From Candidatus Oxydemutatoraceae bacterium (GTDB lineage Bacteria > Pseudomonadota > Gammaproteobacteria > Poriferisulfidales > Oxydemutatoraceae): 64,000 nt of DNA. The notes beneath the pieces were generated by a model. That model did not search any database. It was not told the DNA's origin and worked only from the letters and a program-made list of their open reading frames with translations. Every line of letters begins with the position of its first letter. The first letter of the stretch is position 1. A program made the position numbers and the translations under genes. Shown one piece after another: positions 41,585-64,000 of the stretch. The stretch lies in the NCBI GenBank assembly GCA_965220085.1, contig CBDCOZ010000002.1, forward strand, positions 166,215 to 230,214, written 5' to 3'.

Positions 41585-42787
41585 GTGTTTGCGATGTTCA
41601 CACCCATTTGCACCCGCCGACGGACAACACGAACTCGGCTTAGCCTGCGGTCGCTCATTCTGCCGGCGCTGTTTGTTGTCTGCGCTCAGGCGCAGGCGCA
41701 GAACACTGTCGCCACCGGGGAACCGGCGGTGACGGCGGCGGACAGCGCTGACCTGACTATGGTGGGGCCCAATGAGGACATTGTGCTGACTGCGGCCCGC
41801 GGCACGATAATGGATGATACCGATGACATCACCACATTCAGCCCGACCTGGGCCTGGCAACAGGCCGATGCCCCGAACACCGGCACTCCGGCGGACAGCG
41901 ACTACTCCGCCATAGCCGGCGCCACCGCCGCCACCTTCACACCCCTGCAGGAACATGGCGGCAAGTTCATCCGCGCCTGCGCCACCTTTGACGATGATGC
42001 CGGCAACAGCGAGACCCGATGCTGGACCTCCGCCGCCGCTGTGGTCAATGTCAATGACAAACCGGTTGCGCTGGACAACACCATCTTTGTGCCGGTGGGC
42101 GGCAGTTACACTTTCTCGGCGGACGACTTTCCGTTCACCGATGAAGAGCGTGACACTCTGCGTTGGGTGACCGTTAACACCGTGCCCTCCAGAGGCACTG
42201 TGGCCATATTGGGATCAGGCGCCAGCAGAAGCTTTGACGTTTCGAAGTCACATTTGGATAGCAACAACCTGACCTACGTCCCTTCCGCTGATGCCACCGC
42301 TCCCATGGCCGGCTATACCACCTTTACCTTCGTTGTGAGAGCCGGCGGCGGTAACCGCGAACACGCCAGTGCCGCCGCCACCATGACCATAGATCTGGTG
42401 CAGGCCACGCAATCGGCGGCAACCGGCACACTGATTGTGACGGCGGCATCGGGCGCAGCCTACAACGAGGGCGCGGAACTGACCGCCTCCACCGCCGGCA
42501 TCATCGAACCCAACGGCATCCGCCCCCACGGCCTGATGTGGCAATGGCAATCCGCCAGCGCGCCAATCAGCGGCGCCCCGCCCGCCAGCGCATATGGCGA
42601 CATCACTTCGTTCACCGACGCCACCTTCACCCCTTCGCAAGCGTATGTCGGCACATACATCCGCGTTTGCCTCAATTTCACCGATGGCTTGGGCACCGCC
42701 GAGGGCCCGTTCTGCTCCGCCGGCGCCCGTGTGTTTGACGCCTTGCGCTTGCGGCTGCGCCTCTTCCTTGAAGGCCCGTTGCGGTAG
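41585..42787 (+). CDS. Ig/cadherin-like secreted protein, FLEGPLR family
   Basis: GTG 41585 or ATG 41594 start, signal peptide ..CAQAQAQ, WAWQQ/DFPFTD repeats, ends ALRLRLRLFLEGPLR*. Confidence 0.83.
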   Translation: MFAMFTPICTRRRTTRTRLSLRSLILPALFVVCAQAQAQNTVATGEPAVTAADSADLTMVGPNEDIVLTAARGTIMDDTDDITTFSPTWAWQQADAPNTGTPADSDYSAIAGATAATFTPLQEHGGKFIRACATFDDDAGNSETRCWTSAAAVVNVNDKPVALDNTIFVPVGGSYTFSADDFPFTDEERDTLRWVTVNTVPSRGTVAILGSGASRSFDVSKSHLDSNNLTYVPSADATAPMAGYTTFTFVVRAGGGNREHASAAATMTIDLVQATQSAATGTLIVTAASGAAYNEGAELTASTAGIIEPNGIRPHGLMWQWQSASAPISGAPPASAYGDITSFTDATFTPSQAYVGTYIRVCLNFTDGLGTAEGPFCSAGARVFDALRLRLRLFLEGPLR

Positions 42788-48943: not shown

Positions 48944-50203
48944 TCAGCCCAAGTATCTCGCCCACCGTTTTTTGTGCAAGTTGTCCAGTATGCTTTGCTC
49001 ATCCAGCAAAGCGCGGCTCATCGCCGCATAATCGCAGATTCTTAACTTCTCGCGCAAATCGGCCGGCGAATCAAAATACATCACATTGCGCCGATACCAT
49101 TCGCATTTGTCCAGCCAGAAGTCAACCGCATCCTTGTCCAGATTGTTGTTCGGGTCGGGCATCGCGGCCGCCGCTTGCGAGACGATTCCGGAGAAGCCGC
49201 CGCGCGTTCGGCGGTTATTTTTGCCCTTATTTGTTGTCGATGTTTTTTCATTCAATGCGCCGTATCGCAGATGCCATTCGCTCATCAACTTCTTGGACGG
49301 GAAAAACATCGGGACTCCCATCTTCATGAACTCCAACATCTGCCCCGAGTAAACACTGTGCGGAAAGAACACCGCCGCCTTGTGTCTGAGAACATCCTCA
49401 ACGGCATACGGCAAACGCAAAACCGGCATGTTCAAGGCGCGTCGGGTTTTGTGCCAAGCCCTCGTCATTGCCGACCGCGCAAGGGCGAGCGGCGCTTTGA
49501 TGTTGCTTCGGGTCAGCGCAAGGGGCGTTGCCCTTCGCCCGTACATCCGCAACTTGATACGCGTGTTGCGCCGAAACCATCGCCCGTATTCTTCGTGTAT
49601 CTTTTCCCTGAGCACCATAGGCCCTCTGACGGGGAACATCAGTATCTCCTTGTGACACACATTCTCTTCGCGCCATTGATAGTTGTCCATATAAGCCAAC
49701 CGCAACGGCATGCGGGAAATGTCGCGGCCGGTGAAATACTTAAAGTACGCAATGTCGTAATCGCAACACGCGTGCGCAAACAGTTTCTTGTCATCCATCA
49801 AACGCAGCGTCTTCTCTATCAGCCGATCAAAGTTTTCTGCGGACGGCTGATAACCGCCCTCCAGCCGGAAGTACAAGTTGAGTATGGTCGGCGCCTCGCA
49901 ACGGCTGTACAGATGGAAAAGCCAAGTGTTGTAGCCGCAGTAGAAATAGTCCGCATCCAACGCCCGCACCGCTTCGGGAAATGTCTTTGCCATGCGCTCC
50001 ATCGTCGCAAAATCGTATTGCCGCGGGATGCGGCTGCTGTCAAACCCTATCGCTTGGGACGCCCTCTCAAGCGGGTAGTACCCCGCATAGGCGGCATCGG
50101 CATGATTGAGCGCCTTGGCGCCCATTGACGGCAATGCGCTGACAAGGTCGCGAACTACCACCGCGTGCCTGTCCATCGTGAATACGGTTTTGCCGGCTTT
50201 CAT
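48944..50203 (-). CDS. Hypothetical protein, possibly glycosyltransferase-like
   Basis: Long ORF from MKAGKTVFTMDRH; HKAAVFFPHSVYS..LEFMKMGVPMFFPS resembles a GT-B donor-binding segment; may extend 5' through repeats to 50548. Confidence 0.55.
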   Translation of the reverse strand: MKAGKTVFTMDRHAVVVRDLVSALPSMGAKALNHADAAYAGYYPLERASQAIGFDSSRIPRQYDFATMERMAKTFPEAVRALDADYFYCGYNTWLFHLYSRCEAPTILNLYFRLEGGYQPSAENFDRLIEKTLRLMDDKKLFAHACCDYDIAYFKYFTGRDISRMPLRLAYMDNYQWREENVCHKEILMFPVRGPMVLREKIHEEYGRWFRRNTRIKLRMYGRRATPLALTRSNIKAPLALARSAMTRAWHKTRRALNMPVLRLPYAVEDVLRHKAAVFFPHSVYSGQMLEFMKMGVPMFFPSKKLMSEWHLRYGALNEKTSTTNKGKNNRRTRGGFSGIVSQAAAAMPDPNNNLDKDAVDFWLDKCEWYRRNVMYFDSPADLREKLRICDYAAMSRALLDEQSILDNLHKKRWARYLG

Positions 50204-50204
50204 G

Positions 50205-50500
50205 AGTCGCCTTGCATCTGTTGTGCGGCGGTTGGCATCTGACGGGCGCTTGGTCGTAAGCATCGCTTGCAGTTGCCCCGCATCTGTTTTGCGGCGGTTG
50301 GCGTCTGACGACTGCCTGATTGCAAGCATCGCTCGGAGTTGTCCGGCGTCTGCTTTGCGGCGGTTAGCATCTGACGGGCGCTTGATCGTAAGCATCGCTC
50401 GGAGTTGCCCGGCGTCTGTTTTGCGGCGGTTAGCATCTGACGGGCGCTTGGCCGTAAGCATCGCTTGTAGTTGCTCCGCATCTGTTTTGCGGCGGTTGGC
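50205..50500. repeat. 66-bp imperfect tandem repeat (~4.5 copies; second set at ~51780-52075)
   Basis: Unit encodes SDANRRKTDAGQLRAMLTIKRP-like 22-mers in frame with the downstream ORF. Confidence 0.85.
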
Positions 50501-50879
50501 AGAGGTTGCGATATTTTTGGACGGGGGGTTGTTGTGTGCGGCGAGCAAGCGACCATTCGCTTTCTCGGAGGTTGCGATATCTTGGGACGGAGGGTTGTTG
50601 TGCGGGTCGGAAGCTCTTGCAATGTTTTGTCTGTCGTTTCGTTAAGAAGTGCGATGTGTGATTGTTAGTCAAGCGCTTCTATTGTATCAGGCTCCGGATT
50701 GTGTTGCTTGTCACATGTGCCGACGCTTGTGTGGGGCTGATGTATTCCGGATAAAGCGGCGGGTGTTTTTGACTTGTGCATAGTGTTTTCAATTTGAGTC
50801 CGTGATAGAATTTTCGCTTCGGAAAATGCTTTTGCCTTGGCGAAACAGGGCGCAAGCCTTGTGTTATGCAGTGTTCGCA

Positions 50880-51030
50880 CACACAATCACCGCTCGCAGA
50901 GGGCGGCAGGCAATGTCATCAAAAGCCCAATGCTACCGCTCACACAATCACCGCTCGCAGAGGGCGGCAGGCAATGTCATCAAAAGCCCAATGCTACCGC
51001 TCACACAATCACCGCTCGCAGGGGGCGGCA
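50880..51030. repeat. 61-bp tandem repeat, ~2.4 copies
   Basis: Unit CACACAATCACCGCTCGCAGAGGGCGGCAGGCAATGTCATCAAAAGCCCAATGCTACCGCT. Confidence 0.85.
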
Positions 51031-51238
51031 ACATCTGGCAATCGCTGACCGGCGACACACCGGCACAGAGTGGCGGCACTGCATGGGCGCATCCGGGGCG
51101 ACTGCCAGTGCCCGCCCGCTACCCGCTGTTTCAAACTGTTGCGTGGCGCTACATGGGCGCACCCGGAGCGACTGCCAGACCACCGACTGGCGCACCACAG
51201 GGCGCGCAGATGGTGTTGCGCACACCACAGGCCGCAAT

Positions 51239-51499
51239 CTATTTTGGTGTCAGGTGTTCTCCCGCTTCCCTAAGGGCGCCACCCGCATTCTCAAGGTTGG
51301 CACCCGTAGCCTTAAGGTCGGAACCCAGAGTTTTAAACTCGCTATCCAGCCTTTGAGCCAGCATCTTTTCCAGTCTGGCCTCCGAGCCTTTAATCTCCTC
51401 CCGCAACCCTTGATCCACGGCTGCAATCTGCTTCTCCGTCTTGGCGAAACCTCCCCTGAGTAATCGCGCCACTTCTTCCATGCCTTTCAAAACGGTCAT
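51239..51499 (-). CDS. Small coiled-coil hypothetical protein
   Basis: AGGGG RBS, MTVLKGMEEVARLLRGGFAKTEKQI.. with heptad pattern. Confidence 0.55.
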   Translation of the reverse strand: MTVLKGMEEVARLLRGGFAKTEKQIAAVDQGLREEIKGSEARLEKMLAQRLDSEFKTLGSDLKATGANLENAGGALREAGEHLTPK

Positions 51500-51571
51500 A
51501 AAACACCCCTGTTGAAAAATAGTATGAGCAGGCACTATAACACAAAACAGGGATGTTTCTGGCATTATTCC

Positions 51572-52326
51572 CCACCGTCGCAAAATCGTACTCCCGCGGG
51601 ATGCGGCTGCTGTCAAACCCTATCGCTTGGGACGCCCTCTCAAGCGGGTAGTACCCCGCATAGGCGGCATCGGCATGATTGAGCGCCTTGGCGCCCATTG
51701 ACGGCAATGTGCCGGCGAGGTCGCGAACTGCCGTTGCGCGCTTGTCCATCGTGAATACGGTTTTGCCGGCTTTCATAAGTTGCCCCGCATCTGGTTCGCG
51801 GCGGTTGGCATCTGACGGGTGCTTGATCGTAAGCATCGCTCGGAGTTGTCCGGCATCTGTTTTGCGGCGGTTGGCGTCTGACGACTGCCTGATTGCAAGC
51901 ATCGCTCGGAGTTGTCCGGCATCTGCTTTGCGGCGGTTAGCATCTGACGGGCGCTTGGTCGTAAGCATCGCTCGGAGTTGCCCGGCGTCTGTTTTGCGGC
52001 GGTTAGCATCTGACGGGCGCTTGGTCGTAAGCATCGCTTGCAGTTGCTCCGCATCTGTTTTGCGGCGGTTGGCAGAGGTTGCGATATTTTTGGACGGGGG
52101 GTTGTTGTGTGCGGCGAGCAAGCGACCATTCGCTTTCTCGGAGGTTGCGATATCTTGGGACGGAGGGTTGTTGTGCGGGTCGGAAGCTCTTGCAATGTTT
52201 TGTCTGTCGTTTCGTTAAGAAGTGCGATGTGTGATTGTTAGTCAAGCGCTTCTATTGTATCAGGCTCCGGATTGTGTTGCTTGTCACATGTGCCGACGCT
52301 TGTGTGGGGCTGATGTATTCCGGATA
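51572..52326 (-). pseudogene. Truncated duplicate of 49999-50753
   Basis: 1573-bp offset copy; broken next to an IS481-like IR (GATGTTTCTGGCATTATTC, ~51552-51570); other end lies 19 bp before the first CRISPR repeat. Confidence 0.85.
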
Positions 52327-52345
52327 TGCCCCGCTGACGCCGCAT

Positions 52346-55300
52346 GTTTTGACTTCCCCCCCAATCAAGCCTGATATAATCAACCGGCAGTTTCACTGAT
52401 GACGACGCCGGGTTTTGACTTCCCCCCCAATCAAGCCTGATATAATCGCGTGATAAAAAAACCGGCGAGAAGATCGAGTTTTGACTTCCCCCCCCAATCA
52501 AGCCTGATATAATCCGATGGGAACTTCACCGGCGAGCGCTATATGTTTTGACTTCCCCCCCAATCAAGCCTGATATAATCTTTTTGCACTTGTTGACAAG
52601 GCGACCGGGGGTTTTGACTTCCCCCCCAATCAAGCCTGATATAATCTCGAGCTGATCAGGCTCACGCATCTGTAGAGGTTTTGACTTCCCCCCCAATCAA
52701 GCCTGATATAATCTGCGCGGCTGCGCATAACCACCGCCAGCGAGTTTTGACTTCCCCCCCAATCAAGCCTGATATAATCATGGTCTCTGCATAACAATGC
52801 TTGCATCCGGTTTTGACTTCCCCCCCAATCAAGCCTGATATAATCCCACAGGCGGCCACAGGCGGCCACAGGCGGCCACGTTTTGACTTCCCCCCCAATC
52901 AAGCCTGATATAATCGTGATGGCCTATTGCGCACGAGCGAACTTAGTTTTGACTTCCCCCCCAATCAAGCCTGATATAATCAGCAGCAACAGCTGGAATA
53001 ACATGAAGCCAGTTTTGACTTCCCCCCCAATCAAGCCTGATATAATCTTTACGGTCGAAGACATCCGCGGCATGGCGTTTTGACTTCCCCCCCAATCAAG
53101 CCTGATATAATCAAAGGTGCACATACACTCTATAACATCTTAGTTTTGACTTCCCCCCCAATCAAGCCTGATATAATCCTACGCAGTCGATCGGGACTAT
53201 CAGGTCGAGTTTTGACTTCCCCCCCAATCAAGCCTGATATAATCGCGATATTTCGAGGCATGCGGCGCGCAAGAGTTTTGACTTCCCCCCCAATCAAGCC
53301 TGATATAATCGCGCACGCTAACCGACGTGCACATCAAGCAGTTTTGACTTCCCCCCCAATCAAGCCTGATATAATCCAAGAGCGTGAACATTCAATATGC
53401 GGCTGAGTTTTGACTTCCCCCCCAATCAAGCCTGATATGATCCTCAAGCCAAAAATCAATCTTGCGATGGCGGTTTTGACTTCCCCCCCAATCAAGCCTG
53501 ATATAATCGCAGTTCAGACGGACACGAGATACCGTCAGGTTTTGACTTCCCCCCCAATCAAGCCTGATATAATCCGACAACGTGTATATATATAGAGTGA
53601 CCGGGTTTTGACTTCCCCCCCAATCAAGCCTGATATAATCTGAACAGCGCCGCGCCGTTGCGGCCTGAGGGTTTTGACTTCCCCCCCAATCAAGCCTGAT
53701 ATAATCCGCTCCGCGTCAAAGCGCGGGTTGTTCGCGGTTTTGACTTCCCCCCCAATCAAGCCTGATATAATCACGGCGCGATGAACATCATCACGACCTA
53801 TGTTTTGACTTCCCCCCAATCAAGCCTGATATAATCTTATCTGGTGGCGGCAATGCTCTGGCATGGGTTTTGACTTCCCCCCCAATCAAGCCTGATATAA
53901 TCGCCAGCCAGATCCAGCCAGATGGCGGACATGTTTTGACTTCCCCCCCAATCAAGCCTGATATAATCCGTGATGTCGCCATCCTCGAATACGTTGAAGT
54001 TTTGACTTCCCCCCCAATCAAGCCTGATATAATCGCGCCGCCGGCGTTCAGCATGACAACTATAGTTTTGACTTCCCCCCCAATCAAGCCTGATATAATC
54101 ACCGATAACGCTAACAAGATCGAACTCAAAGTTTTGACTTCCCCCCCAATCAAGCCTGATATAATCGGACTGGCTGGCCGACGAGCTCGACATAGTGTTT
54201 TGACTTCCCCCCCAATCAAGCCTGATATAATCTTTCTTCGATTATCGGAAACTCTGATGTTGGTTTTGACTTCCCCCCCAATCAAGCCTGATATAATCTT
54301 TTCTGGTGAGTTCTGTAATCAGTTAATGTTTTGACTTCCCCCCCAATCAAGCCTGATATAATCGGACAGCAGTTACGAACCAGTAACGTATGCGTTTTGA
54401 CTTCCCCCCCAATCAAGCCTGATATAATCTTTATTCCGTTGTCAAAGACGGCAAAGACAGTTTTGACTTCCCCCCCAATCAAGCCTGATATAATCGGCAG
54501 TCATGAGCAATCGAGAGATTACGCTGTTTTGACTTCCCCCCCAATCAAGCCTGATATAATCTTTCCGGGTCATCTGTTTCGCATTGCTGGTGTTTTGACT
54601 TCCCCCCCAATCAAGCCTGATATAATCCGTTGTTCCAATCATTGGAACAGCAACTATGTTTTGACTTCCCCCCCAATCAAGCCTGATATAATCTTGCATA
54701 GGCAGCAACGGGGTGTTTACCTAGTTTTGACTTCCCCCCCAATCAAGCCTGATATAATCTGCGCAACTGCGCACCGGCATGGAATCCGGGTTTTGACTTC
54801 CCCCCCAATCAAGCCTGATATAATCTTGCTGTTGTGTTGTGTGTGTTGGTGGTGTGTTTTGACTTCCCCCCCAATCAAGCCTGATATAATCGTACGGACT
54901 TCCGATGTGGTTGGGCGACAGGTTTTGACTTCCCCCCCAATCAAGCCTGATATAATCTCTGGTTGGCATTGCCCAAGAAACTGTCGAGTTTTGACTTCCC
55001 CCCCAATCAAGCCTGATATAATCGGCATGGTACTTCCCAATGCGACATACTGTGTTTTGACTTCCCCCCCAATCAAGCCTGATATAATCTCGCCAGTATG
55101 GCGCCGCGCCGGTGACATAGTTTTGACTTCCCCCCCAATCAAGCCTGATATAATCCGAGATTAAAATTAGTATTCCTAAGTTGAGGTTTTGACTTCCCCC
55201 CCAATCAAGCCTGATATAATCTCCATGATTTCTGGCGGTTAATCCGCGCCTGTTTTGACTTCCCCCCCAATCAAGCCTGATATAATCCCCAAGCATTAGT

Positions 55301-56672
55301 ACCAGGATAAGCTTGATGTTTTGACTTCCCCCCCAATCAAGCCTGATATAATCACTTATACAGAGGCGCACAACAACGTGCTGGTTTTGACTTCCCCCCC
55401 AATCAAGCCTGATATAATCCTGAGCCAATATGTCGCGGGCAAGTACAACGTTTTGACTTCCCCCCCAATCAAGCCTGATATAATCAGCCCGCCGCAAACA
55501 ACGATAGTCATTATAGTTTTGACTTCCCCCCCAATCAAGCCTGATATAATCATGAATGATATACAACGCCGTGAACATTGGTTTTGACTTCCCCCCCAAT
55601 CAAGCCTGATATAATCCTCAAAATGCGCAGGAGCGGGCAGATCTAAGTTTTGACTTCCCCCCCAATCAAGCCTGATATAATCCAATGTCATGTTGCAGAC
55701 TGCCACGCCGTTGTTTTGACTTCCCCCCCAATCAAGCCTGATATAATCGTGAATTCCATGTCTGATCTTTTTATGGGTGTTTTGACTTCCCCCCCAATCA
55801 AGCCTGATATAATCTATTCCGCCGAGTCACCGTTGACGTCATGGGTTTTGACTTCCCCCCCAATCAAGCCTGATATAATCCAAAGCGCTGCGCGCTTGCG
55901 TGGACGACATGTTTTGACTTCCCCCCCAATCAAGCCTGATATAATCTAAGGATGTGTTTTATGGGCTTCAGATCATGTTTTGACTTCCCCCCCAATCAAG
56001 CCTGATATAATCTACCGACAATCATTTCGAAAATTATCCTACGTTTTGACTTCCCCCCCAATCAAGCCTGATATAATCTGGGCGCGAAAGACAAAGACAC
56101 GCTGCACAGTTTTGACTTCCCCCCCAATCAAGCCTGATATAATCATCCTGCACAAATTGCGCGGTTTCGCGCCGGTTTTGACTTCCCCCCCAATCAAGCC
56201 TGATATAATCTAAGGATGTGTTTTATGGGCTTCAAATAATGTTTTGACTTCCCCCCCAATCAAGCCTGATATAATCTGTATCTACGCAACATATCGATGC
56301 TAGATAGTTTTGACTTCCCCCCCAATCAAGCCTGATATAATCTAAGTTTCTTAGAATGCGCCCCCGTCTCCGGTTTTGACTTCCCCCCCAATCAAGCCTG
56401 ATATAATCCGTCGGCGTTGTGAAGCGCGTAAGATTCACGTTTTGACTTCCCCCCCAATCAAGCCTGATATAATCATTCTCGCCGAGCTCGCGCTTGTATC
56501 GCTCGTTTTGACTTCCCCCCCAATCAAGCCTGATATAATCGCAGTCTTCGATCACAATGATAAATGTCACGTTTTGACTTCCCCCCCAATCAAGCCTGAT
56601 ATAATCCGCGGGCACTGCCCGCAGGAGAAAATGAAAGTTTTGACTTCCCCCCCAATCAAGCCTGATATAATC
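52346..56672 (+). CRISPR. Type II CRISPR array, 66 repeats / 65 spacers
   Basis: 36-bp repeat GTTTTGACTTCCCCCCCAATCAAGCCTGATATAATC, spacers mostly 30 bp; each repeat ends in an extended -10 (TGATATAAT) as in II-C arrays, implying plus-strand transcription. Confidence 0.99.
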
Positions 56673-56779
56673 CGGCTTGATTTAAGTGGCTGAAAGTGCT
56701 AACTTATATGCAGGGAAGTCTTAACTGACGAACCACCCAGGCACTCCCTGCGAAAGTACATTGTTCTGGGTGGTTTTTT
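56673..56779 (+). ncRNA. Probable tracrRNA
   Basis: Anti-repeat GGGAAGTCTTAAC (56713-56725) pairs with repeat 5' GTTTTGACTTCCC; stem AACCACCCAG/CTGGGTGGTT followed by a T run. Confidence 0.7.
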
Positions 56780-56793
56780 ATTGACTTGGGATT

Positions 56794-57189
56794 TTATTCC
56801 CAAAAAATTGTCTGTCTGGGCATGACGAGTTTAGTCTGCCTGCTTCCGTGATTATAATCAGAACCCATAACAGTTATTCCGCGTTGCCACTGGTAGTCTG
56901 TTAAAAACAATACACGGATGTTACCCGCATGAGGCACAATCCGCCGCAAACGTGATTTGTGCTTATCTAGTCGCTCAGATGTGGGGCAAGATCTGGCATA
57001 GACACTATATTGAATCATATAGTATCCGTCATCTAGCAAAGCGTTCCGGAATTTTGTCGCTTGCTGTCGTTGCTTCTTGGTTAGCACCGGCAAGTCAAAC
57101 ATTACGAGTACCCATCCCATTTTGAAAGGGCTCAGCCTATTTCTATCTCGGGAAACCACAGTGGCGTTATCTTCATTTCCGAATAACAT
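56794..57189 (-). CDS. cas2: CRISPR-associated endoribonuclease Cas2 (true start probably ~57120-57165)
   Basis: MGWVLVMFDLPV, FRNALLDDGYYMIQYSVYAR. Confidence 0.93.
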   Translation of the reverse strand: MLFGNEDNATVVSRDRNRLSPFKMGWVLVMFDLPVLTKKQRQQATKFRNALLDDGYYMIQYSVYARSCPTSERLDKHKSRLRRIVPHAGNIRVLFLTDYQWQRGITVMGSDYNHGSRQTKLVMPRQTIFWE

Positions 57190-58037
57190 CGGACAAGACT
57201 CTGAACCGTCTTATCTATCGCACTGACTAATCGAATAGAGTGATTTTCACTTTTCACAAGATTCTCCGTAAGCTGTGTGCTAACTAACTCCGTCCAGTCT
57301 CGCATCGCTGGTATAAGGTTGCCCGACAGGAACTGAAACAAGTAACAATCTATAAACGGTCTATACGGTTCCATTACATCATAGGCTAACGGGTTAGAAC
57401 CATAGCGTGCCACATGACCTGTTCCTAAAAGAGGTGACAAGCCGTGTGCGACTAATGACCTATGGCAAAGAGAGGTCAACACAGTGTAACCATAATTTAG
57501 CATTGCGTTAGGAACATCACTATCTTGACGATTCCTTCGTGCTTGCGGATATCCGATCAAAGGGAAATATTCTCGCCAGTAATAGCGCGCGCAGTTACCC
57601 TCATCAATGTGCTTGCTTTCTATAGCGCGTCCCAAATATGCCGAACTAGCCCCCATAGACTCTAAGCCCAATTTTTGATTTACTGTTTTTGCTATCAGCA
57701 TCCGCTTCCATAGTGACTTGTTGAAGCGAACCGGTTGTTTGGCTTGGTTTGAATAAGCGGCAGTATTCAACGATTTCTCAAGAGGGCAAGTAATGCCGGA
57801 TGGTAGAAACTTGTCATCGCAATGTAAGATGATTGCTCCCTCAGAAAGCACGGCACTAATCAAGTTAGAGGTAAATGTAACACCTTTAGCGGCAATAACA
57901 ATTGCGCGTATATCTTCAATCGGATGTTTTAGTTCTTTACACTGCTTCTGCCTATCAAGCGACCTGCAAACTAAGAAACCCCTTTCTTTGCAGATGAAAG
58001 AATTGTGTTGAAGGATGTGAATAATGTTGTGACTCAT
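57132..58037 (-). CDS. cas1: Type II Cas1
   Basis: PIEDI, EGNCARYYW, NAMLNYGYTVL, LAYDVMEPYRP. Confidence 0.95.
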   Translation of the reverse strand: MSHNIIHILQHNSFICKERGFLVCRSLDRQKQCKELKHPIEDIRAIVIAAKGVTFTSNLISAVLSEGAIILHCDDKFLPSGITCPLEKSLNTAAYSNQAKQPVRFNKSLWKRMLIAKTVNQKLGLESMGASSAYLGRAIESKHIDEGNCARYYWREYFPLIGYPQARRNRQDSDVPNAMLNYGYTVLTSLCHRSLVAHGLSPLLGTGHVARYGSNPLAYDVMEPYRPFIDCYLFQFLSGNLIPAMRDWTELVSTQLTENLVKSENHSIRLVSAIDKTVQSLVRCYSEMKITPLWFPEIEIG

Positions 58038-61000
58038 TCATGCTTTCGTTTTTTTAAAACAAATTTCTTCTTTTCCCTATCTGACTCTTCCTTTATAAAG
58101 GAATTCAGAGTCCCTTCACACTTCTTTCCTTTTGAAGATGTCATTTCTATTCTCCCATTAGATTTAATAGTGTTAAGCATATATGTACCAGAACTTATTT
58201 CTTTCTGGTTCTTTTTAGTAATTACGGCTTCAGTCACTTCTATAAGACACTTTGAATGGAAAAAATCAAATATTTTTTGTACATCTGGGTTACTCTCTAA
58301 TTCTTTTTTAACTGTATGCTTTGACTCAAATACTCTTACTGGTTTAACACGCACTTTGTCTTTACTATCCAAGTAAAGAAACTGTCCTTGGTCTGGCCCT
58401 TTGCGAGTTCTAAATTGTCCAAATTGGCCTCTGGAAATGTCCTTGTAATTACTGATGCCTCTGTCTGCAACTCGGACTTTCTTCACTAAGGGGCTATTCT
58501 TATTCAATCGGAAATCCTTACAGTATTCTTGCCATTGTTTTTCATCCATTTGCTTATTCTCACTAATCCAATCTTTTACCTTTTTGCGGATATCATCATC
58601 ATATATTTTTTCAGCCCTCTTTTTTATTGCTGTCATTCCTTTCCACTTGCCATTTTCATCATACGCTAAAGAGTCAAGAGACACTCGATAAGTTGCTTGC
58701 TCTTCACCGTCAACTTCTCGCTTCCCGTATATTGTTTCCCTGAGAATAGGCTTGTCAAAGCATATTTGGTGCGGCATGACTTGTTCAAGCACAGAACCAA
58801 AGAATCTTTGCGGGTTAGCCTTGCGCACTTCTGGGGGAAGAGCAAAATAAAGCCGCTTCTTAGAATCTCTTACCCAGTTTGGGATAAAAGACAATATCAT
58901 TGCGTCCAGCGCATGGTGTCGCTTATCATTTCTATTCTTTTCCACGTTCGTTCCTTCGTGCAACAACTCAAACAGCTTATACTTTTGAGCAACCATGTTT
59001 GTCGCACCCCCGCTCAGCACAACCACCTTCCTATCATTCCCTTCAAAATCCGGTTTCCAACCGAAATGTAGGCACACTATCATCTGTGTTAATTTTGCAA
59101 TCCAAGCTGTTTGCTGGAGTTTGACGCGATTGTCGGCAGCCTTTAAAGCATCTTCCATGTTCGTCGCTGATAGAAGTGTGGCTTTAAATTTAGGGTACTT
59201 CTTTCCTTTCACCATTCCTTTGAGACGCTCTACAAAGGCGCTCCATATGCCTTCCTGCTTTAGCCAATCAGATGGCAAGCGGTCGCCTTGATTACCATTA
59301 CAATTCCTACACGCAAGCACAATATTCATGTAAGCACGCGGACCGCCTTGAGAATTCGGAACTATATGGGTTATTTCTGTATTTTCAAAAGGTATTGCCT
59401 TACGTAAACCGGATGATTCAGACAGAGTAATCAGACGATCACAAAATATACAACGCTCTTGTTGCTCTTTCAAAAGTTGCCATTTCAGTATGTTTTCCCG
59501 GGAAGGAGATAGCTTTTTCTCTCCCAATTCTTCCCGTGCATCCTTATTTGCTTTTTCACGTTTTTTCGCATGTGTCGTGTATTCACTCTTTCTCCTTTTC
59601 GATAACCAATCTTCTCTGACAAATTCAATGGCCACTCTGTCAGGGGTACCAAACTCCTCTTGCATATTTTTTATCTGTGAAAGAAAGACCCCTAATCTAT
59701 GGCGAACTACAGGGTCGTTTTGGCTGGCAATAATCTTTTGAATAGCATATTCTTTGGCTTGCTCATCTTCTTTACCTATGGTTTTATATTCCGACAGTGT
59801 TTCATCTGGAATGTAAAGCCCAGCCCAACTATTTCCCATACGCTCCATAAAGGATAAATCTTCTTTAACCAGGCCTTTTTTCTTATCGGAGTTTCCATCA
59901 ATCAGCCTCTTTTCATTTTCCTTCAAGAATTGTCGGGGCGCTTTCCCAGAAAGAATAATATCTTTGATTATCTTCAGGGCTGGGCGTGAAAATCGAGCTC
60001 TTCCGGAAAATTTCGGAGCATCAACTTTGTTATTCTCCGGAGCCGCATGTGCACTATCTCCGCCATATCGGCAAATATACTTTGCCAGTTTTTTCTCTGT
60101 CAACTTCAGTTTGTTCGTGATCTTTCTTTCTGATGTGTCTTGCTTCTTATTGTTAACATCTTGCATGCACTCATCAAATATTTCTTTCAACTTATTGTTA
60201 ACATCTTGCATGCACTCATCAAATATTTCTTTCAACTGCTCACATGTAAATGCCTTTTTATCTTCTCCGACTATAAATCGGAAATTTTTTAACTTCATTA
60301 AAAATGTGACTTGTGCGGGTAGCAACGAGTCTCCCACAATATCACCGTTTTTAACTTTGGGAGTAGCACGGCAAACATTGAGCCGAGGGATGAGGGCACA
60401 TTTATTTGGAGAACGATTATCAAATGTCGGTATCTTTTGTGCCAAAATTCCCTGCCAGTCGGTTTCCTTGCCTCTAAGTAATTTTTTTCTGCCCCCTACT
60501 TTTTCGTATAATTCGGGGGTCTCGCACTCGGCACGATACGATGCATAGGCTTCGCCTGCGGGCCCGTACAGCAGATAGTCTTCTTTTCCTGTAAGGGCGG
60601 GGTATTGCTTTTCTGCTTGCTTGAACATGCAACGCAATTGTTTCTCTATCATGTGCCTGGGATACACGGCCATCGTGGGAGGCAACCACTCTATATCCTC
60701 TTTTGCCTTGCCTTTCTTTTTTTCGTTGTTTAACTTTTCTCTTGCTATCGGATCTTTCGTCTCACCCACATGGGTGCTTTTGGCGTTATGGTCAATACGC
60801 ACTTTGTATGTGTCGGGTAATTTCGGATCCCATAAACCCATGCGATACGCTTCCCAATAACATGGGTGATGGTGATTTGCATCCTTGCTTATGTTTTTTA
60901 TTTCTTTCTGAATGCAGGTTGCTCGTTCAGCAGTTTCGGTAAATTCCCCATTTTCTTCTTCGCTTTTTTCTCCACTTCTATCGGCGGTTTTTGCAACATT

Positions 61001-61471
61001 TTTCCATGGGATGTACTTGTCAAACCCTCGTTTTTGAATCGCCGAATGAAACGCTTTGTACAGTTGCCACTCTTCAAGTTTTTCGCCTTGCAAGAGCATC
61101 ATCTGCAATAACGCCCCGCAGTACGCTGTGTCATCATCCTTTGCGGGAAATTCTCTTTCCAGTCTCTCATCGCCGCTCTTCAGTTTCTCTTTTCCTTCAC
61201 TACCGATAATCTCCGCGCCGTTCAGCACTTCCAGCCCCGCTTCTTGGAAAACTTTCCGAAGCCACTCTTCCCGTTTTTTGTGTGCCAATCTGGTTCTGTA
61301 AGCGCGACGCCGCTCCGCCGCAGACTTCGTTTTCGCAAACTCATCGGGAATCAACAAAGAGTCAACTTTGTTAAACTCAAAAGGGTCGCCTTTGGCTCCG
61401 CGAACTGCGTATCCTAGTGAGCCGGTTCCAATATCAAATGACCAGATGTGTTTTGGTTGCTCATTCGCCAT
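58034..61471 (-). CDS. cas9: Cas9 (1145 aa, divergent)
   Basis: RuvC-I SFDIGTGSLG, Arg-rich bridge helix, RuvC-II IEFVRE, HNH with CxxC..THIVP..N..CxxCN, RuvC-III HHALDA; no csn2 or cas4 in the operon. Confidence 0.95.
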   Translation of the reverse strand: MANEQPKHIWSFDIGTGSLGYAVRGAKGDPFEFNKVDSLLIPDEFAKTKSAAERRRAYRTRLAHKKREEWLRKVFQEAGLEVLNGAEIIGSEGKEKLKSGDERLEREFPAKDDDTAYCGALLQMMLLQGEKLEEWQLYKAFHSAIQKRGFDKYIPWKNVAKTADRSGEKSEEENGEFTETAERATCIQKEIKNISKDANHHHPCYWEAYRMGLWDPKLPDTYKVRIDHNAKSTHVGETKDPIAREKLNNEKKKGKAKEDIEWLPPTMAVYPRHMIEKQLRCMFKQAEKQYPALTGKEDYLLYGPAGEAYASYRAECETPELYEKVGGRKKLLRGKETDWQGILAQKIPTFDNRSPNKCALIPRLNVCRATPKVKNGDIVGDSLLPAQVTFLMKLKNFRFIVGEDKKAFTCEQLKEIFDECMQDVNNKLKEIFDECMQDVNNKKQDTSERKITNKLKLTEKKLAKYICRYGGDSAHAAPENNKVDAPKFSGRARFSRPALKIIKDIILSGKAPRQFLKENEKRLIDGNSDKKKGLVKEDLSFMERMGNSWAGLYIPDETLSEYKTIGKEDEQAKEYAIQKIIASQNDPVVRHRLGVFLSQIKNMQEEFGTPDRVAIEFVREDWLSKRRKSEYTTHAKKREKANKDAREELGEKKLSPSRENILKWQLLKEQQERCIFCDRLITLSESSGLRKAIPFENTEITHIVPNSQGGPRAYMNIVLACRNCNGNQGDRLPSDWLKQEGIWSAFVERLKGMVKGKKYPKFKATLLSATNMEDALKAADNRVKLQQTAWIAKLTQMIVCLHFGWKPDFEGNDRKVVVLSGGATNMVAQKYKLFELLHEGTNVEKNRNDKRHHALDAMILSFIPNWVRDSKKRLYFALPPEVRKANPQRFFGSVLEQVMPHQICFDKPILRETIYGKREVDGEEQATYRVSLDSLAYDENGKWKGMTAIKKRAEKIYDDDIRKKVKDWISENKQMDEKQWQEYCKDFRLNKNSPLVKKVRVADRGISNYKDISRGQFGQFRTRKGPDQGQFLYLDSKDKVRVKPVRVFESKHTVKKELESNPDVQKIFDFFHSKCLIEVTEAVITKKNQKEISSGTYMLNTIKSNGRIEMTSSKGKKCEGTLNSFIKEESDREKKKFVLKKRKHE

Positions 61472-61560
61472 GTTGTTTCTCCTAATATTTCACAAGTATA
61501 CAGTATGAGGCATCTGCGGGAGGTGAAGGTAGGAGCATTGAATACCGCAGACGCATATAC

Positions 61561-61589
61561 TCCTTGCCCACACTAGTGGGGGTGAACCG
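61561..61589 (+). repeat. Orphan type I-E-like CRISPR repeat (single copy)
   Basis: 29-mer TCCTTGCCCACACTAGTGGGGGTGAACCG with CCCAC/GTGGG stem and TGAACCG end. Confidence 0.6.
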
Positions 61590-61700
61590 CCCATCGCGGT
61601 TCTGCTCTGCCAGCCAATCCCAAAATGCCGGGCAAAAATCAAATCCGTAATGCAGATTCTTGGCCTGGATAAAGATGTTTGCATCCAGCAGGCAGGTCAT
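61590..61700 (-). pseudogene. Truncated DUF4411 (PIN-like) gene
   Basis: LLDANIFIQAKNLHYGFDFCPAFWDWL N-terminus; similarity ends at the orphan repeat. Confidence 0.8.
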
Positions 61701-62845
61701 GTGATCGCCCCCACTTTTCGCCCCAGTTTGTCAAAGGTGCGGGTTTTGGAGATGCCGAGCATGCGAAAGGCGTCCCGGTACAGGGTGCGCCCCTCCAGGG
61801 TGCTGACTATGAGGGCATGGACAAACCGGCGGCCTGCGCGGGACAGAGTGGTGCGGTAGAAGTCGCCGCCGCTCCTGTTGCTCCCCATATTTGCCAGTCG
61901 TTTGCTTTCCTGCTCCCAGGCGGCAGCAAAGGCATCCCGGCCCAGCCAGCGCACATCTTTCAGCCGCCTGAGTATGACCAGTGCGCTAACCTTGAAGGAC
62001 TTTGCCAGCCGAGGCATGGCCATTGCCAACGGCTCGCCCTGACGTAGTTCGCTTTGCAACGCGGCTCTGGGCACCAGAAGCTCAGCCGCCACCGCATTGC
62101 ACCAAACCTCCTCGGTGCGATATCCCGACACCGGGGCCATCCCTATGTCGGACAAGGCGGAATCGCCCAGCCACAGATGCGCCAACTCGTGGGCCAGCGT
62201 GAACATCTGCGCCGCTCTGGTATCGGCGCCGTTTATAAATATAAGCGGAGCCTGAGGGTCGGATAGCGCAAAGCCGCGAAACTCTCTGGGGTTTAGCTTG
62301 CGATGGGTGTTGCTGCCAACAATGCCATTGACCATCACCAAAACGCCAATGTCCTCCGCCTGACGGATAAACTCACGCAATGCTTCGGACCATGTGGGGC
62401 ATTCCTTGCGGGCCTCCACGCCAAACCCCAGCGCCTTGCGCATCTGCGTCGCCACATCCTCCGCCGGCGCATCCATAGTGGCGCTGCCGACAAAGCCCGG
62501 CCCGCCGCGTCGGCTTGCCCGCGCGAAATCCCTGTACCAGTCCTGTCGTTCCTGGCAGGCGTAAATGGTGTCCAGCAAATCCGGGCTGGGGCGCTCAGGA
62601 ATCCGCCCGCCAAAGGTGCGAAAATCAGGGATGGGCACATCCTCCTCCGGCGGCTCATCAAGAAACAGATAGCCCACCGGCACATGCACCGCCTGTGCGA
62701 ACCGCTCAACCTGTCGCAGGGTGGGTTGCAACTCCCCGCTCTCCCACTCCGCAATCTTGCCAAACCGGGCCACAAGCGCATCCTGACCCACCCCGGCGCG
62801 CTCCCGCGCCCAGCGCACAAGATCAGGATTGACCGCAACACGCAT
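61697..62845 (-). CDS. XRE-HTH plus ImmA/IrrE-family metallopeptidase
   Basis: N-terminal HTH (WARERAG..WESGE.QPT), FTLAHELAH HExxH, EEVWCNAVAAELLVP; coupled to DUF4411. Confidence 0.92.
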   Translation of the reverse strand: MRVAVNPDLVRWARERAGVGQDALVARFGKIAEWESGELQPTLRQVERFAQAVHVPVGYLFLDEPPEEDVPIPDFRTFGGRIPERPSPDLLDTIYACQERQDWYRDFARASRRGGPGFVGSATMDAPAEDVATQMRKALGFGVEARKECPTWSEALREFIRQAEDIGVLVMVNGIVGSNTHRKLNPREFRGFALSDPQAPLIFINGADTRAAQMFTLAHELAHLWLGDSALSDIGMAPVSGYRTEEVWCNAVAAELLVPRAALQSELRQGEPLAMAMPRLAKSFKVSALVILRRLKDVRWLGRDAFAAAWEQESKRLANMGSNRSGGDFYRTTLSRAGRRFVHALIVSTLEGRTLYRDAFRMLGISKTRTFDKLGRKVGAIT

Positions 62846-62868
62846 TACGACAACCTCTTGTTACAAGG

Positions 62869-63105
62869 CGTATGATGCCAAGACATATCGGACGCGCGCG
62901 GCAAATGTTGTGCGATTTGTGTCATGGGTGTTTGGAGCCTCAATCCATAGTGTAACCGTTGGATATTAAACCATAACAGATAGTTTATCCGACAATCATT
63001 GAATGTCCGCATATCGGCCCTCAACAAACCCTCTTCAAATTCCGCAGACTCTTCCCGAAGAGGCGGTGAAAGCGTCCATTGAACGCATTCATTCTTCGGG
63101 CATTT
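62869..63105 (-). mobile_element. IS481-family 3'-end remnant
   Basis: IR CGTATGATGCCAAGACATATCGGA and decayed ..YLLWFNIQRLHYGLRLQTPM. Confidence 0.85.
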
Positions 63106-63160
63106 GTCATCTCCGGCATCCCCCCGAAACCAAGCGCTTTCAGATGGCGCGAGGGGAGCG

Positions 63161-64000
63161 TGAATAATGCCAGAAACATTCCAGATTCCTGACTTCAACA
63201 AAAAACGTAGCCGACATGCAATAGCAACACATCGGCTACGGCATCAGAGGTCTCTATAAAATAGCTGCTTTTTCAGTACAGGAGGCAACTATGAGTCATA
63301 CGACCCAACAGAAACTTGAAGCCCTTACATTATGGGAGAAACACGGCATAAAAGCCAGCATGGACGCTTACCACATCAGCCAATCATCACTCTATGAGTG
63401 GCGGAGACAATATCGGCTTTATGGCATTAACGGCTTAGTCAATCAGAGCGCTTGCCCGCGCCAGCCACGCCAGCACAACTGGCCTCCGGAGATAATCGCC
63501 GAGATTCGGCGACACCGCGAAAACTATCCCTGCGGCGCACCTCATAAACAACCCGCAAACAGTTTATGGAACACAAACAACTTAAGGAACCACAAACAAC
63601 AAATCTAAGAACACACAAACAACAGAGTTGTTTGTGCTCTTATCACTGTGCTCTCATATCGTTTGTGCTCTCATCAAAAAACACACAAACAACAAAGCTG
63701 TTTGTGCTCTCATCAAAAAATACACAAACAACAAAGTTGTTTGTGCCTCTCATTATTGTGCCTCATTACATGTTGTTTGCCCACCCAAGCCATACCTGCT
63801 GATTCAACCGTGGTGTGACGAGCAGGGCTTAGCTTGTCCCAGTCCGCGTACCATCGTGCGACTGACTGCCGGTGCATCCGATAAGATGCGCCGGTGCGCA
63901 CAACGCCGCGTTGGCAGCGCACACCGCAACACAAGCCCCGTCTTGACAAGGGTTCCAAGGCAAAGCATCCCAGGCAGTGCATCGCTATGGATACCGTGCA
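63161..64000 (+). mobile_element. Degenerate IS481-family copy with nested hairpin-repeat insertion (63543-63781)
   Basis: IR TGAATAATGCCAGAAACATTCCAGA, MSHTTQQKLEAL.. transposase interrupted after YPCGAP. Confidence 0.85.

Follow-up and report, generated by a model that had tools for sequence, protein, structure and literature searches.

A type II-C tracrRNA gene directly behind the terminal CRISPR repeat, with a predicted single-guide-like read-through RNA for the last spacer

In the 64,000-nt stretch of Candidatus Oxydemutatoraceae DNA analysed here (the window), the element that directly follows the last repeat of a CRISPR array is, judged by its sequence, the tracrRNA of a type II-C CRISPR-Cas9 locus, encoded on the array strand. 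Its position is generic for the whole Cas9 clade, while the short, split site with which it pairs to the repeat is unusual here. On balance, we favour an ordinary tracrRNA that acts in trans from the clade's usual place, with an RNA fused to the last spacer and repeat arising as a precursor or side product rather than as the main form. That the fused RNA serves as a working natural single guide for the last spacer is no more than plausible.

The array converges on cas2-cas1-cas9, and array and tracrRNA both lie downstream of cas2. Past the array, the plus strand carries first GGCTTGATT and a small hairpin, then GGGAAGTCTTAAC, and finally a long hairpin followed by a T6 run. The sequence anatomy, as observed, is as follows:

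52346-56672, plus strand: CRISPR array of 66 repeats, each 36 nt, with 65 spacers, 59 of them 30 nt long
56571-56606, plus strand: penultimate repeat, whose extended -10 would start the last-spacer RNA (a promoter role suggested by the TGATATAAT consensus and by Campylobacter jejuni)
56607-56636, plus strand: last (cas2-proximal) spacer, 30 nt
56637-56672, plus strand: terminal repeat, with AATCAAGCC (56654-56662) followed by the extended -10 TGATATAAT (56663-56671)
56674-56682, plus strand: GGCTTGATT, the reverse complement of repeat positions 18-26, overlapping a predicted -35 box TTGATT (56677-56682)
56683-56706, plus strand: small linker hairpin, holding the 17-nt promoter spacer and a predicted -10 box TAACTT (56700-56705)
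56713-56725, plus strand: anti-repeat (lower stem) GGGAAGTCTTAAC, pairing with repeat positions 1-13 with two U.U mismatches
56726-56779, plus strand: tracrRNA scaffold with TGACGA, the long hairpin (~56732-56774), an apical CUGC..G(C/U)AC motif and T6
56794-57189, minus strand: cas2 (Pfam CRISPR_Cas2, 1.6e-18), convergent with the tracrRNA
57132-58037, minus strand: cas1 (Pfam Cas_Cas1, 1.4e-28)
58034-61471, minus strand: cas9, 1145 aa (Pfam HNH and RuvC_III)

With cas9, cas1 and cas2 only, and csn2 and cas4 absent, the locus has the gene content of type II-C. Next to cas9 on its upstream side, the open reading frame 61697-62845 encodes an M78 peptidase that has a weak HTH; it is not a cas gene. 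The HNH and RuvC_III matches agree with the HNH plus split RuvC architecture of Cas9, and the cas9 product has 341 homologues at E <= 1e-10, several of them named Cas9/Csn1 by their sources; one (P0002) is 85% identical. In a 27-sequence alignment, D13, H702, H853 and D856, which we take to be the catalytic residues, are among the invariant or nearly invariant columns. This Cas9 was found in none of 18 other genomes of the family, a single-protein scan of genome contigs returned no closer relatives, and a pattern of the tracrRNA core had 0 matches in metagenomes. A repeat-pattern scan yielded 62 loci, each with a single match that we took for chance. Near-identical copies of parts of the locus occur on other contigs: 56647-58389 on one of 5418 nt, the contig that encodes P0002, with 41 differences, and 56673-56824 with 3 differences. 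Besides, repeats with a 66-nt period (50139-50609 and 51712-52182) were considered as an old array and rejected as tandem repeats that are not CRISPR; they sit inside a flank that is duplicated and open on the minus strand.

The initial annotation had placed a tracrRNA directly behind the terminal repeat and on its strand, with an anti-repeat complementary to the repeat's 5' end but for two U-U mismatches, followed by a stem and a T run. All of these elements are borne out. A covariance model (R1) built from 29 distant relatives, with the window and a paralogous locus (on contig C1) left out, matched 56713-56784 over model positions 1-70 (39.7 bits, E 1.8e-07), and throughout the genome the tracrRNA was found twice, in the window and beside a second cas9 on C1. 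The scaffold hairpin shows compensatory changes in the family at 11/11 pairs and is followed by an intrinsic terminator, whose T6 run occupies 56774-56779. The 13-nt anti-repeat forms 11 pairs, including one with repeat position 1, and its two U.U mismatches fall at repeat positions 4-5; the hybrid has a predicted energy of -17.5 kcal/mol. The orientation of the tracrRNA sets the strand on which the array would be read. Clade tracrRNAs are not in Rfam, and no Rfam match at E <= 1 was found in 49000-64000. A search for a better tracrRNA or anti-repeat elsewhere in the genome, as the initial annotation had proposed, found none. The strongest other pairing, with an orphan repeat fragment on C3 read from its opposite strand (-42.5 kcal/mol), was rejected as an anti-repeat: it involves only the repeat's 3' two thirds, and the fragment has no scaffold. 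Other strong repeat-pairing sites in the genome were G-runs.

For comparison, we analysed 46 of 80 related loci (L013-L092), mostly from Verrucomicrobiota MAGs, whose Cas9 proteins are only 30-39% identical to that of the window (tblastn); the host of the window is, tentatively, a proteobacterium. Shared with the window are the gene order, a similar repeat start (often GTTTTGACTTC, elsewhere with single changes, for instance GTTTTGCCTTC or GTTCTGACTTC) and a TA..AT-type repeat end, the anti-repeat end ...AAGTCTTAAC with its two U.U mismatches, the joint, one long covarying hairpin, the apical motif and the geometry of a promoter in the linker. In these relatives the tracrRNA nearly always lies directly behind the terminal repeat, in most with the anti-repeat 31-51 nt downstream of it. 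Their anti-repeats, however, are continuous and 26-33 bp long, with predicted hybrid energies of -45 to -65 kcal/mol, in 39/46, whereas that of the window has 13 nt and a separate 9-nt piece that has moved onto the -35 box. Among II-C systems the median hybrid energy is -39.4 (PMC6546382); compared with these values, -17.5 kcal/mol makes a purely trans mechanism look marginal on paper.

How might such a tracrRNA be transcribed? The array repeats are highly uniform: 63/66 are identical, and a perfect extended -10 TGATATAAT closes 65/66, the repeat at 53407 having TGATATGAT instead. At the sequence level, this agrees with the annotated extended -10 elements. TG and a 6/6 hexamer occur together in 0/46 of the relatives' terminal repeats, and by consensus the window's repeat promoter would be the best of the clade. 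The initial annotation had named a separate promoter between repeat and tracrRNA as grounds against its reading; TTGATT, 17 nt and TAACTT are predicted as such a promoter at the clade's fixed place, and at the level of sequence prediction this counts against the reading. Promoter-like pairs of at least 8/12 consensus matches whose -35 starts 4-6 nt past the repeat occur in 26/46 relatives versus 24/2300 shuffles. The window's own copy, with 7/12 matches, was missed by a consensus scan that needed 9/12 and is predicted to be weak, among the weaker ones of the clade. The linker as a whole is homologous to those of the relatives (23/33 positions identical with L023, reached by 0/5000 shuffles). 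As for a terminator between repeat and tracrRNA, its absence was correctly noted: a scan of 56300-57300 found no terminator-like site on the plus strand, and on the plus strand of 56571-56800 at least four T in a row occur only within the GTTTT that each of the two repeats carries, in the T6 run (56774) and at 56792.

From these features we infer promoter activity, the RNA species and Cas9 loading along the following lines. The tracrRNA gene lies directly after the last repeat, at the acquisition end, and would be read on the array strand towards cas2. Its core RNA (~56712-56779) would form only the lower stem with the crRNA repeat through the 13-nt anti-repeat, followed by the joint, one long hairpin and the U-run, and may serve all 65 spacers in trans. 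Polymerase could enter at three places: at the weak own promoter in the clade's fixed position, at the perfect extended -10 of the terminal repeat ~34 nt upstream, or by read-through from earlier repeat promoters, which is possible because no terminator intervenes. The second entry had been annotated as the driver of the tracrRNA; a start there, at ~56676-56679, would exclude the greater part of GGCTTGATT and bring next to no benefit in trans. Read-through RNA would necessarily carry the terminal repeat and should fold on itself, with a 9-bp AAUCAAGCC/GGCUUGAUU hairpin as its cap, so as to resemble a single guide for the last spacer. As in C. jejuni, this fused RNA is in our view likely to be a precursor or a side product and not the form that does most of the work.

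RNA folding reproduced the annotated spacer-repeat-linker-antirepeat-tracr structure: it is the predicted minimum free energy (MFE) fold of the 169-nt RNA 56612-56780 (-58.7 kcal/mol, z -5.09, with 0/200 shuffles as stable). The layout is not special to this locus; the one-transcript (cis) fold is the MFE in 44/47 cases and need therefore not be an adaptation here. An alternative fold in which GCAGGGA (56710-56716) pairs with TCCCTGC (56745-56751), thereby masking the anti-repeat, had also been put forward. The two sequences are present and complementary, but the pairing is absent from both MFE folds. TCCCTGC falls within the family's conserved apical motif, and the C1 paralog retains the pairing, with one pair turned into G.U by an A-to-G change. 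By eye, we saw no matching complement in the relatives.

Also unusual is GGCTTGATT, which the initial annotation had described as complementary to part of the repeat. It is indeed the exact reverse complement of AATCAAGCC, yet it is no dedicated anti-repeat and overlies the -35 box. By chance, repeat and 40-nt linker shared a perfect complement of at least 9 nt in 76/20000 linker shuffles and 81/20000 repeat shuffles (~0.4%), in a test chosen post hoc, after the match had been seen. The complement is useful only with an RNA start at or before 56675 (-28.1 to -24.2 versus -20.6 kcal/mol from 56676), and by these models it could in practice pair only in read-through RNA. It also costs two consensus positions of the -35 box, for which the clade consensus is TTGAC(A/G). 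A match that worsens the -35 and is unlikely by chance hints at selection for pairing in read-through RNA and not for the promoter.

Taken further, the fused RNA could be the selected working form: an encoded single guide that would start at the penultimate repeat, fold co-transcriptionally and load on Cas9 without RNase III, so that the newest spacer is prioritised and each acquisition shifts the previous spacer out of the slot. RNase III would play no part because no helix is long enough to cut: the longest continuous helices are 8 and 9 bp, probably too short for the enzyme. The MFE of 56612-56780 is exactly the fold that this account needs, and the weak trans hybrid, the contrast between the best repeat promoter of the clade by consensus and one of its weaker own promoters, the rarity and placement of the 9-nt complement and the probable position of the newest end all fit it. 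Nevertheless, we think it rather unlikely. The array is large, uniform and evidently active, and its remaining 64 spacers would still need a trans tracrRNA. In addition, the topology is shared by most loci compared, the C1 paralog lacks the 9-nt complement, relatives such as L091, L038, L055 and L042 manage with short anti-repeats and without a hairpin of the 9-bp type, and the chance estimate carries the post hoc caveat given above.

A historical variant would be that this lineage lost the upper-stem half of its anti-repeat and that the repeat then evolved to pair with the adjacent, transcribed promoter, leaving the newest spacer as a hard-wired, RNase III-independent single guide and the older spacers on weak 13-nt trans pairing. 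Priority for the newest spacer would then be built in and would pass to the next newcomer whenever a spacer is acquired. We put this forward as speculation that is unlikely to hold in full.

Alternatively, the inverted repeat AATCAAGCC / 11 nt / GGCTTGATT might have a DNA-level role, or be an accident, and not form an RNA helix at all. It might mark the site for Cas1-Cas2 integration or act as the operator of a dimeric regulator that covers both promoters; it could also have arisen by a template switch in the quasi-palindrome of terminal repeat and anti-repeat and then have spread along the array by repeat duplication. Consistent with this, it spans the repeat-leader junction, which is the reported insertion site in II-C systems (PMC6008519, PMC12080349), and covers both the -10 of the terminal repeat and the -35 of the own promoter. 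Seven of the nine GGCTTGATT positions (7/9) equal ancestral promoter sequence, and in one relative (L063) this junction carries a perfect complement of 11 nt. Besides, the repeat's 3' part with AATCAAGCC stands alone as a likely promoter before a chromosomal gene on C3, so its conservation need not come from pairing. Against these points, 43/46 relatives have a complement of at most 6 nt in the first 25 nt past the repeat, which indicates that the clade does not need such a palindrome, and we hold a DNA-level explanation to be improbable.

The annotated view that the cas2-proximal spacer is the newest is supported. Variant repeats are confined to 52478, 53407 and 53802, and II-C systems are reported to acquire spacers at the last, cas2-proximal repeat (PMC12080349, PMC6008519); for these two reasons this end of the array is probably the newest. 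For the last spacer itself, searches of its own genome, of phage and plasmid records and of the genomes of the family returned no match. Likewise, the array spacers gave no protospacer in phage records, plasmid records or the family's genomes and no self-targets, and two spacer patterns had no match among viral contigs.

Single-guide RNAs are commonly seen as a product of engineering. If the newest spacer were indeed transcribed fused to its scaffold, cells could make single guides as well, and type II-C systems, in which spacers are reportedly added at the transcription-distal end, would have a simple means to favour the latest one. The window is a good test case for this, because its trans pairing is minimal, no helix of RNase III length was seen and the 9-bp helix can be mutated and restored. 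Independently of that outcome, the analysis delineates a tracrRNA family outside Rfam, belonging to a Cas9 clade that is large and mostly uncultured, in which the predicted tracrRNA promoter, the anti-repeat and the acquisition leader share ~100 nt between array and cas2.

Among known systems, C. jejuni offers a close precedent. Its tracrRNA is reported to be largely transcribed from upstream repeat promoters and co-transcribed with crRNA (PMC3656092), and in the window, likewise, the tracrRNA follows the array on its strand with no terminator between. Both loci consist of a minimal cas9-cas1-cas2 set with repeats that end in an extended -10-like box and, by prediction in our case, with starts inside spacers (PMC3656092) and an array transcribed against the cas operon (PMC3737331). 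However, a stretch of perfect complementarity between crRNA and tracrRNA, cut by RNase III, is described for C. jejuni (PMC3656092), whereas here the anti-repeat has 13 nt and two mismatches and a helix of RNase III length appears to be absent. Another difference is the separate promoter-like element between repeat and anti-repeat in the window. Given this precedent and the generic layout in the clade, the arrangement is no peculiarity of the locus.

Tracr-L, the long tracrRNA form and natural single guide of Streptococcus pyogenes, reportedly represses the cas promoter and needs no CRISPR repeat to fold back on itself. The window would resemble that system in having a long and a short tracrRNA form from two start sites, with a single-guide topology possible (10.1101/2020.05.21.102756), but its fused form would carry a real spacer and repeat. 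A guide matching the cas operon promoter, as in tracr-L, was not seen: between the last spacer and both strands of the 351 nt around the cas9 start (61400-61750) there was no 8-11-nt seed and no shared 9-mer.

Finally, prioritisation by leader RNA and suppression of extraneous crRNAs have been described in II-C systems (PMC12080349). The Introduction and Discussion of that survey of more than 650 II-C systems do not describe a structure favouring the last repeat. There as here, the structure of an end repeat with its flank could bias crRNA use; yet the reported mechanisms concern the repeat transcribed first, where they silence a crRNA that lacks a guide (PMC12080349), whereas the one in the window would act at the last repeat and favour a real guide.

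The window forms the end of the 230-kb contig C2, in a genome of 2.49 Mb in three contigs, and carries an array on which cas2, cas1 and cas9 converge. RpoB features place the host closest to Pseudomonadota clusters, a weak hint at its phylum. Neither csn2 nor cas4 is present at the locus, which is therefore type II-C by gene content. The elements that the initial annotation listed after the last repeat are all found in the sequence:

52346-56672, plus strand: CRISPR array, 66 repeats of 36 nt and 65 spacers
56637-56672, plus strand: terminal repeat, followed by one C and then GGCTTGATT
56674-56682, plus strand: GGCTTGATT, exact reverse complement of repeat positions 18-26
56683-56706, plus strand: small hairpin directly after GGCTTGATT
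56713-56725, plus strand: anti-repeat GGGAAGTCTTAAC, able to pair with repeat positions 1-13 except for U.U mismatches at 4 and 5
After the anti-repeat, plus strand: TGACGA, a long hairpin (about 56732-56774) and T6 (56774-56779)
56794-57189, minus strand: cas2
57132-58037, minus strand: cas1
58034-61471, minus strand: cas9, 1145 aa

Identical repeats make up 63 of the 66, and the three variants (52478, 53407 and 53802) all lie within the cas-distal third of the array. Spacers measure 30 nt in 59 cases, 29 nt in four, and 31 and 34 nt in one case each. Each repeat ends with TGATATAAT and then C, by sequence a perfect extended -10 element. No protospacers were found for the spacers in the bacterium's own genome, in phage and plasmid records or in the family's genomes, nor for two spacer patterns in viral contigs, so the array offers no PAM and no independent strand check. 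Two spacers (55947-55976 and 56211-56240) differ at only 2 of 30 positions, as if two variants of one target had each supplied a spacer. Besides, the array's far flank is duplicated (50000-50775 and 51573-52345; 91% over 300 nt) and holds 66-nt tandem repeats that mimic the CRISPR period, in minus-strand open frames without a Pfam match; the first copy closes with an 11-nt fragment of the repeat start (50765-50775). The product of the gene immediately upstream of cas9 (61697-62845, minus strand) is an IrrE/ImmA-like M78 peptidase that also matches an HTH weakly; regulators of this type are frequent in mobile elements.

Rfam gave no match to the window tracrRNA, and relatives were therefore collected. 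The window Cas9 is isolated: there is one 85%-identical protein, on a 5.4-kb contig, and one paralog in its own genome, all remaining homologues share at most 43% identity and stem mostly from Verrucomicrobiota, and none of the host family's 18 other genomes contains it. An alignment-based scan of genome contigs returned 193 relatives, the best 80 of which were kept; the cas2-proximal array end was located in 47 of these loci, and removal of one for Ns left 46 for analysis (L076, L082, L086 and L090, with arrays whose repeats fall outside the search expression, are not among them). Most of these 46 loci carry the array after cas2, with its reading direction pointing to that gene; their repeats usually start with GTTTTGACTTC or a variant differing by one or two bases, and a TA..AT-like hexamer closes them. 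A short distance past the terminal repeat, on the same strand as the array, comes the anti-repeat, which ends in ...AAGTCTTAAC or a close variant of it and carries the same pair of U.U mismatches; behind it, most loci have TGA, a single long hairpin and a T-run that abuts the cas2 stop. Only in L061 was an anti-repeat not recognisable. Compensatory changes occur in 11 of 11 pairs of the family hairpin, and R1, a covariance model built from 29 relatives with the window and its paralog excluded, matches 56713-56784 over its whole length (39.7 bits, E 1.8e-07). Across the genome, R1 returned only the window copy and a paralog on contig C1, and a search for repeat-pairing sequences found nothing else with the lower stem; the stronger tracrRNA elsewhere that the initial annotation had considered was therefore not found. 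That the downstream element is the tracrRNA of this locus, in the usual place of its Cas9 clade, is well supported.

The C1 paralog (42.1 bits with R1) keeps a 13-14-nt anti-repeat and lacks GGCTTGATT. It lies with three decayed repeats beside a second cas9 (G000:C1:64335-68297), an intact 1134-aa open frame 73% identical to the first, without cas1 or cas2 except for a remnant of the cas2 end. This second locus may be decaying, or its Cas9 may borrow crRNAs from the C2 array. Contig C3 holds, on its minus strand (42686-42714), an orphan copy of the 3' part of the repeat with both AATCAAGCC and TGATATAAT. It lies some 30 nt ahead of a 446-aa ORF that by eye looks like a DNA methyltransferase and is followed by a 701-aa ORF; the copy may serve as a promoter, derived from the repeat, for a chromosomal operon. 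Homopolymer runs of G or C longer than 20 nt also came up repeatedly on C3 in the anti-repeat scan (e.g. near 125845, 168330, 360276, 902182 and 1297756).

The single-guide-like fold proposed in the initial annotation proved to be the minimum free energy (MFE) structure of the RNA 56612-56780 (-58.7 kcal/mol, z -5.09; its stability was matched by none of 200 shuffles). No terminator-like site was found on the plus strand in a scan of 56300-57300, and plus-strand runs of at least four T within 56571-56800 are confined to the two repeat starts, T6 and one at 56792. Perfect complements of at least 9 nt between repeat and 40-nt linker arose in 76 of 20,000 and 81 of 20,000 shuffles, a test chosen post hoc. 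In relatives, repeat:anti-repeat hybrids comprise 26-33 pairs and reach -45 to -65 kcal/mol in 39 of 46 (exceptions: L038, L042, L055, L061, L063, L070 and L091), and Faure et al. quote a II-C median of -39.4 kcal/mol (PMC6546382). The short window tracrRNA yields -17.5 kcal/mol with the repeat, and RNA from 56676-56679, the start expected for the promoter of the terminal repeat if C. jejuni is taken as the analogue, -20.6 kcal/mol. The 9-nt piece adds pairing only for starts at or before 56675 (-24.2 to -28.1 kcal/mol). RNA with the whole GGCUUGAUU must start upstream of the terminal repeat's -10 and so contains that repeat too; the 9-bp helix, whose local hairpin amounts to -12.9 kcal/mol, would thus in practice form in cis, within read-through RNA.

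Between terminal repeat and anti-repeat, relatives have 31-51 non-random nucleotides with the conserved start AGG(C/T)TTGAC. Of the 46 relatives, 26 have a promoter-like pair of at least 8/12 whose -35 hexamer begins 4-6 nt past the repeat, versus 24 of 2300 shuffled linkers. The window linker has the same geometry (TTGATT, 56677-56682; 17 nt; TAACTT, 56700-56705) at a score of only 7/12, below the 9/12 needed in the consensus promoter scan of the window. With 23 of 33 positions identical to the linker of the relative L023 (reached by 0 of 5000 shuffles), it is homologous to the relatives' linkers, and this homology together with their conserved start indicates that GGCTTGA within GGCTTGATT is ancestral promoter sequence. 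The middle of the repeat would then have become complementary to GGCTTGA, and the last two T's of GGCTTGATT would lengthen the match but shift the -35 box off consensus. From -10 box to anti-repeat end, the window spans 20 nt versus 31-50 nt in most relatives, and an own-promoter tracrRNA would thus carry only the 13-nt lower-stem anti-repeat. That the fused RNA is a selected single guide seems unlikely to us; it would account for the very weak trans hybrid, the lack of a helix that looks long enough for RNase III, the weak own promoter beside the clade's best repeat promoter by consensus (TG plus 6/6 hexamer in 0 of 46 relatives), and a complement that is improbable by chance in the post hoc test, takes the promoter further from consensus and finds its partner only in read-through RNA.

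In II-C systems, spacers are reported to be added at the cas2-proximal repeat, the last one to be transcribed (PMC12080349), and the same entry point is reported for R. anatipestifer and C. jejuni (PMC6008519). Together with the position of the variant repeats far from cas2, these reports make the last spacer probably the newest, as the initial annotation had supposed. The tracrRNA gene would then double as acquisition leader. The palindrome at the repeat-leader junction could have a DNA-level role or a mutational, accidental origin, which we regard as quite improbable; the repeat's 3' part also stands alone before a chromosomal gene, so its conservation need not reflect pairing.

Pairing of the terminal repeat with the downstream anti-repeat in one transcript was the MFE structure in 44 of 47 cases (45 relatives with an anti-repeat found by expression, L061 having none, plus the window and C1), the exceptions being L038, L063 and, owing to a misplaced anchor, L064. 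The one-transcript layout is therefore no special trait of the window. In the Gracilibacteria MAG L091 (10291-10445), the 14-nt anti-repeat begins 5 nt past the terminal repeat. A separate promoter would not fit in that gap, and transcription of the tracrRNA must depend on the repeat promoter. In L063 (4782-5045), the terminal repeat is followed by 11 nt perfectly complementary to the 3' part of the repeat, and the lower-stem anti-repeat lies about 95 nt beyond, behind a hairpin with T-run and a promoter-like pair. On balance we lean towards an ordinary trans-acting tracrRNA, with the fused RNA as precursor or side product: an array this large and uniform has 64 other spacers that need it, its own predicted promoter sits at the conserved place, short anti-repeats occur in other relatives too, and the cis topology is generic. 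Co-transcription of II-C crRNA and tracrRNA is already in print: in C. jejuni, most tracrRNA is reported to originate from the upstream promoters in the repeats, the product not being called a single guide in the passages of that paper drawn on here (PMC3656092). In the read-through RNA of the window, the 9-bp helix would cap the repeat and thereby resemble the loop of an engineered single guide.
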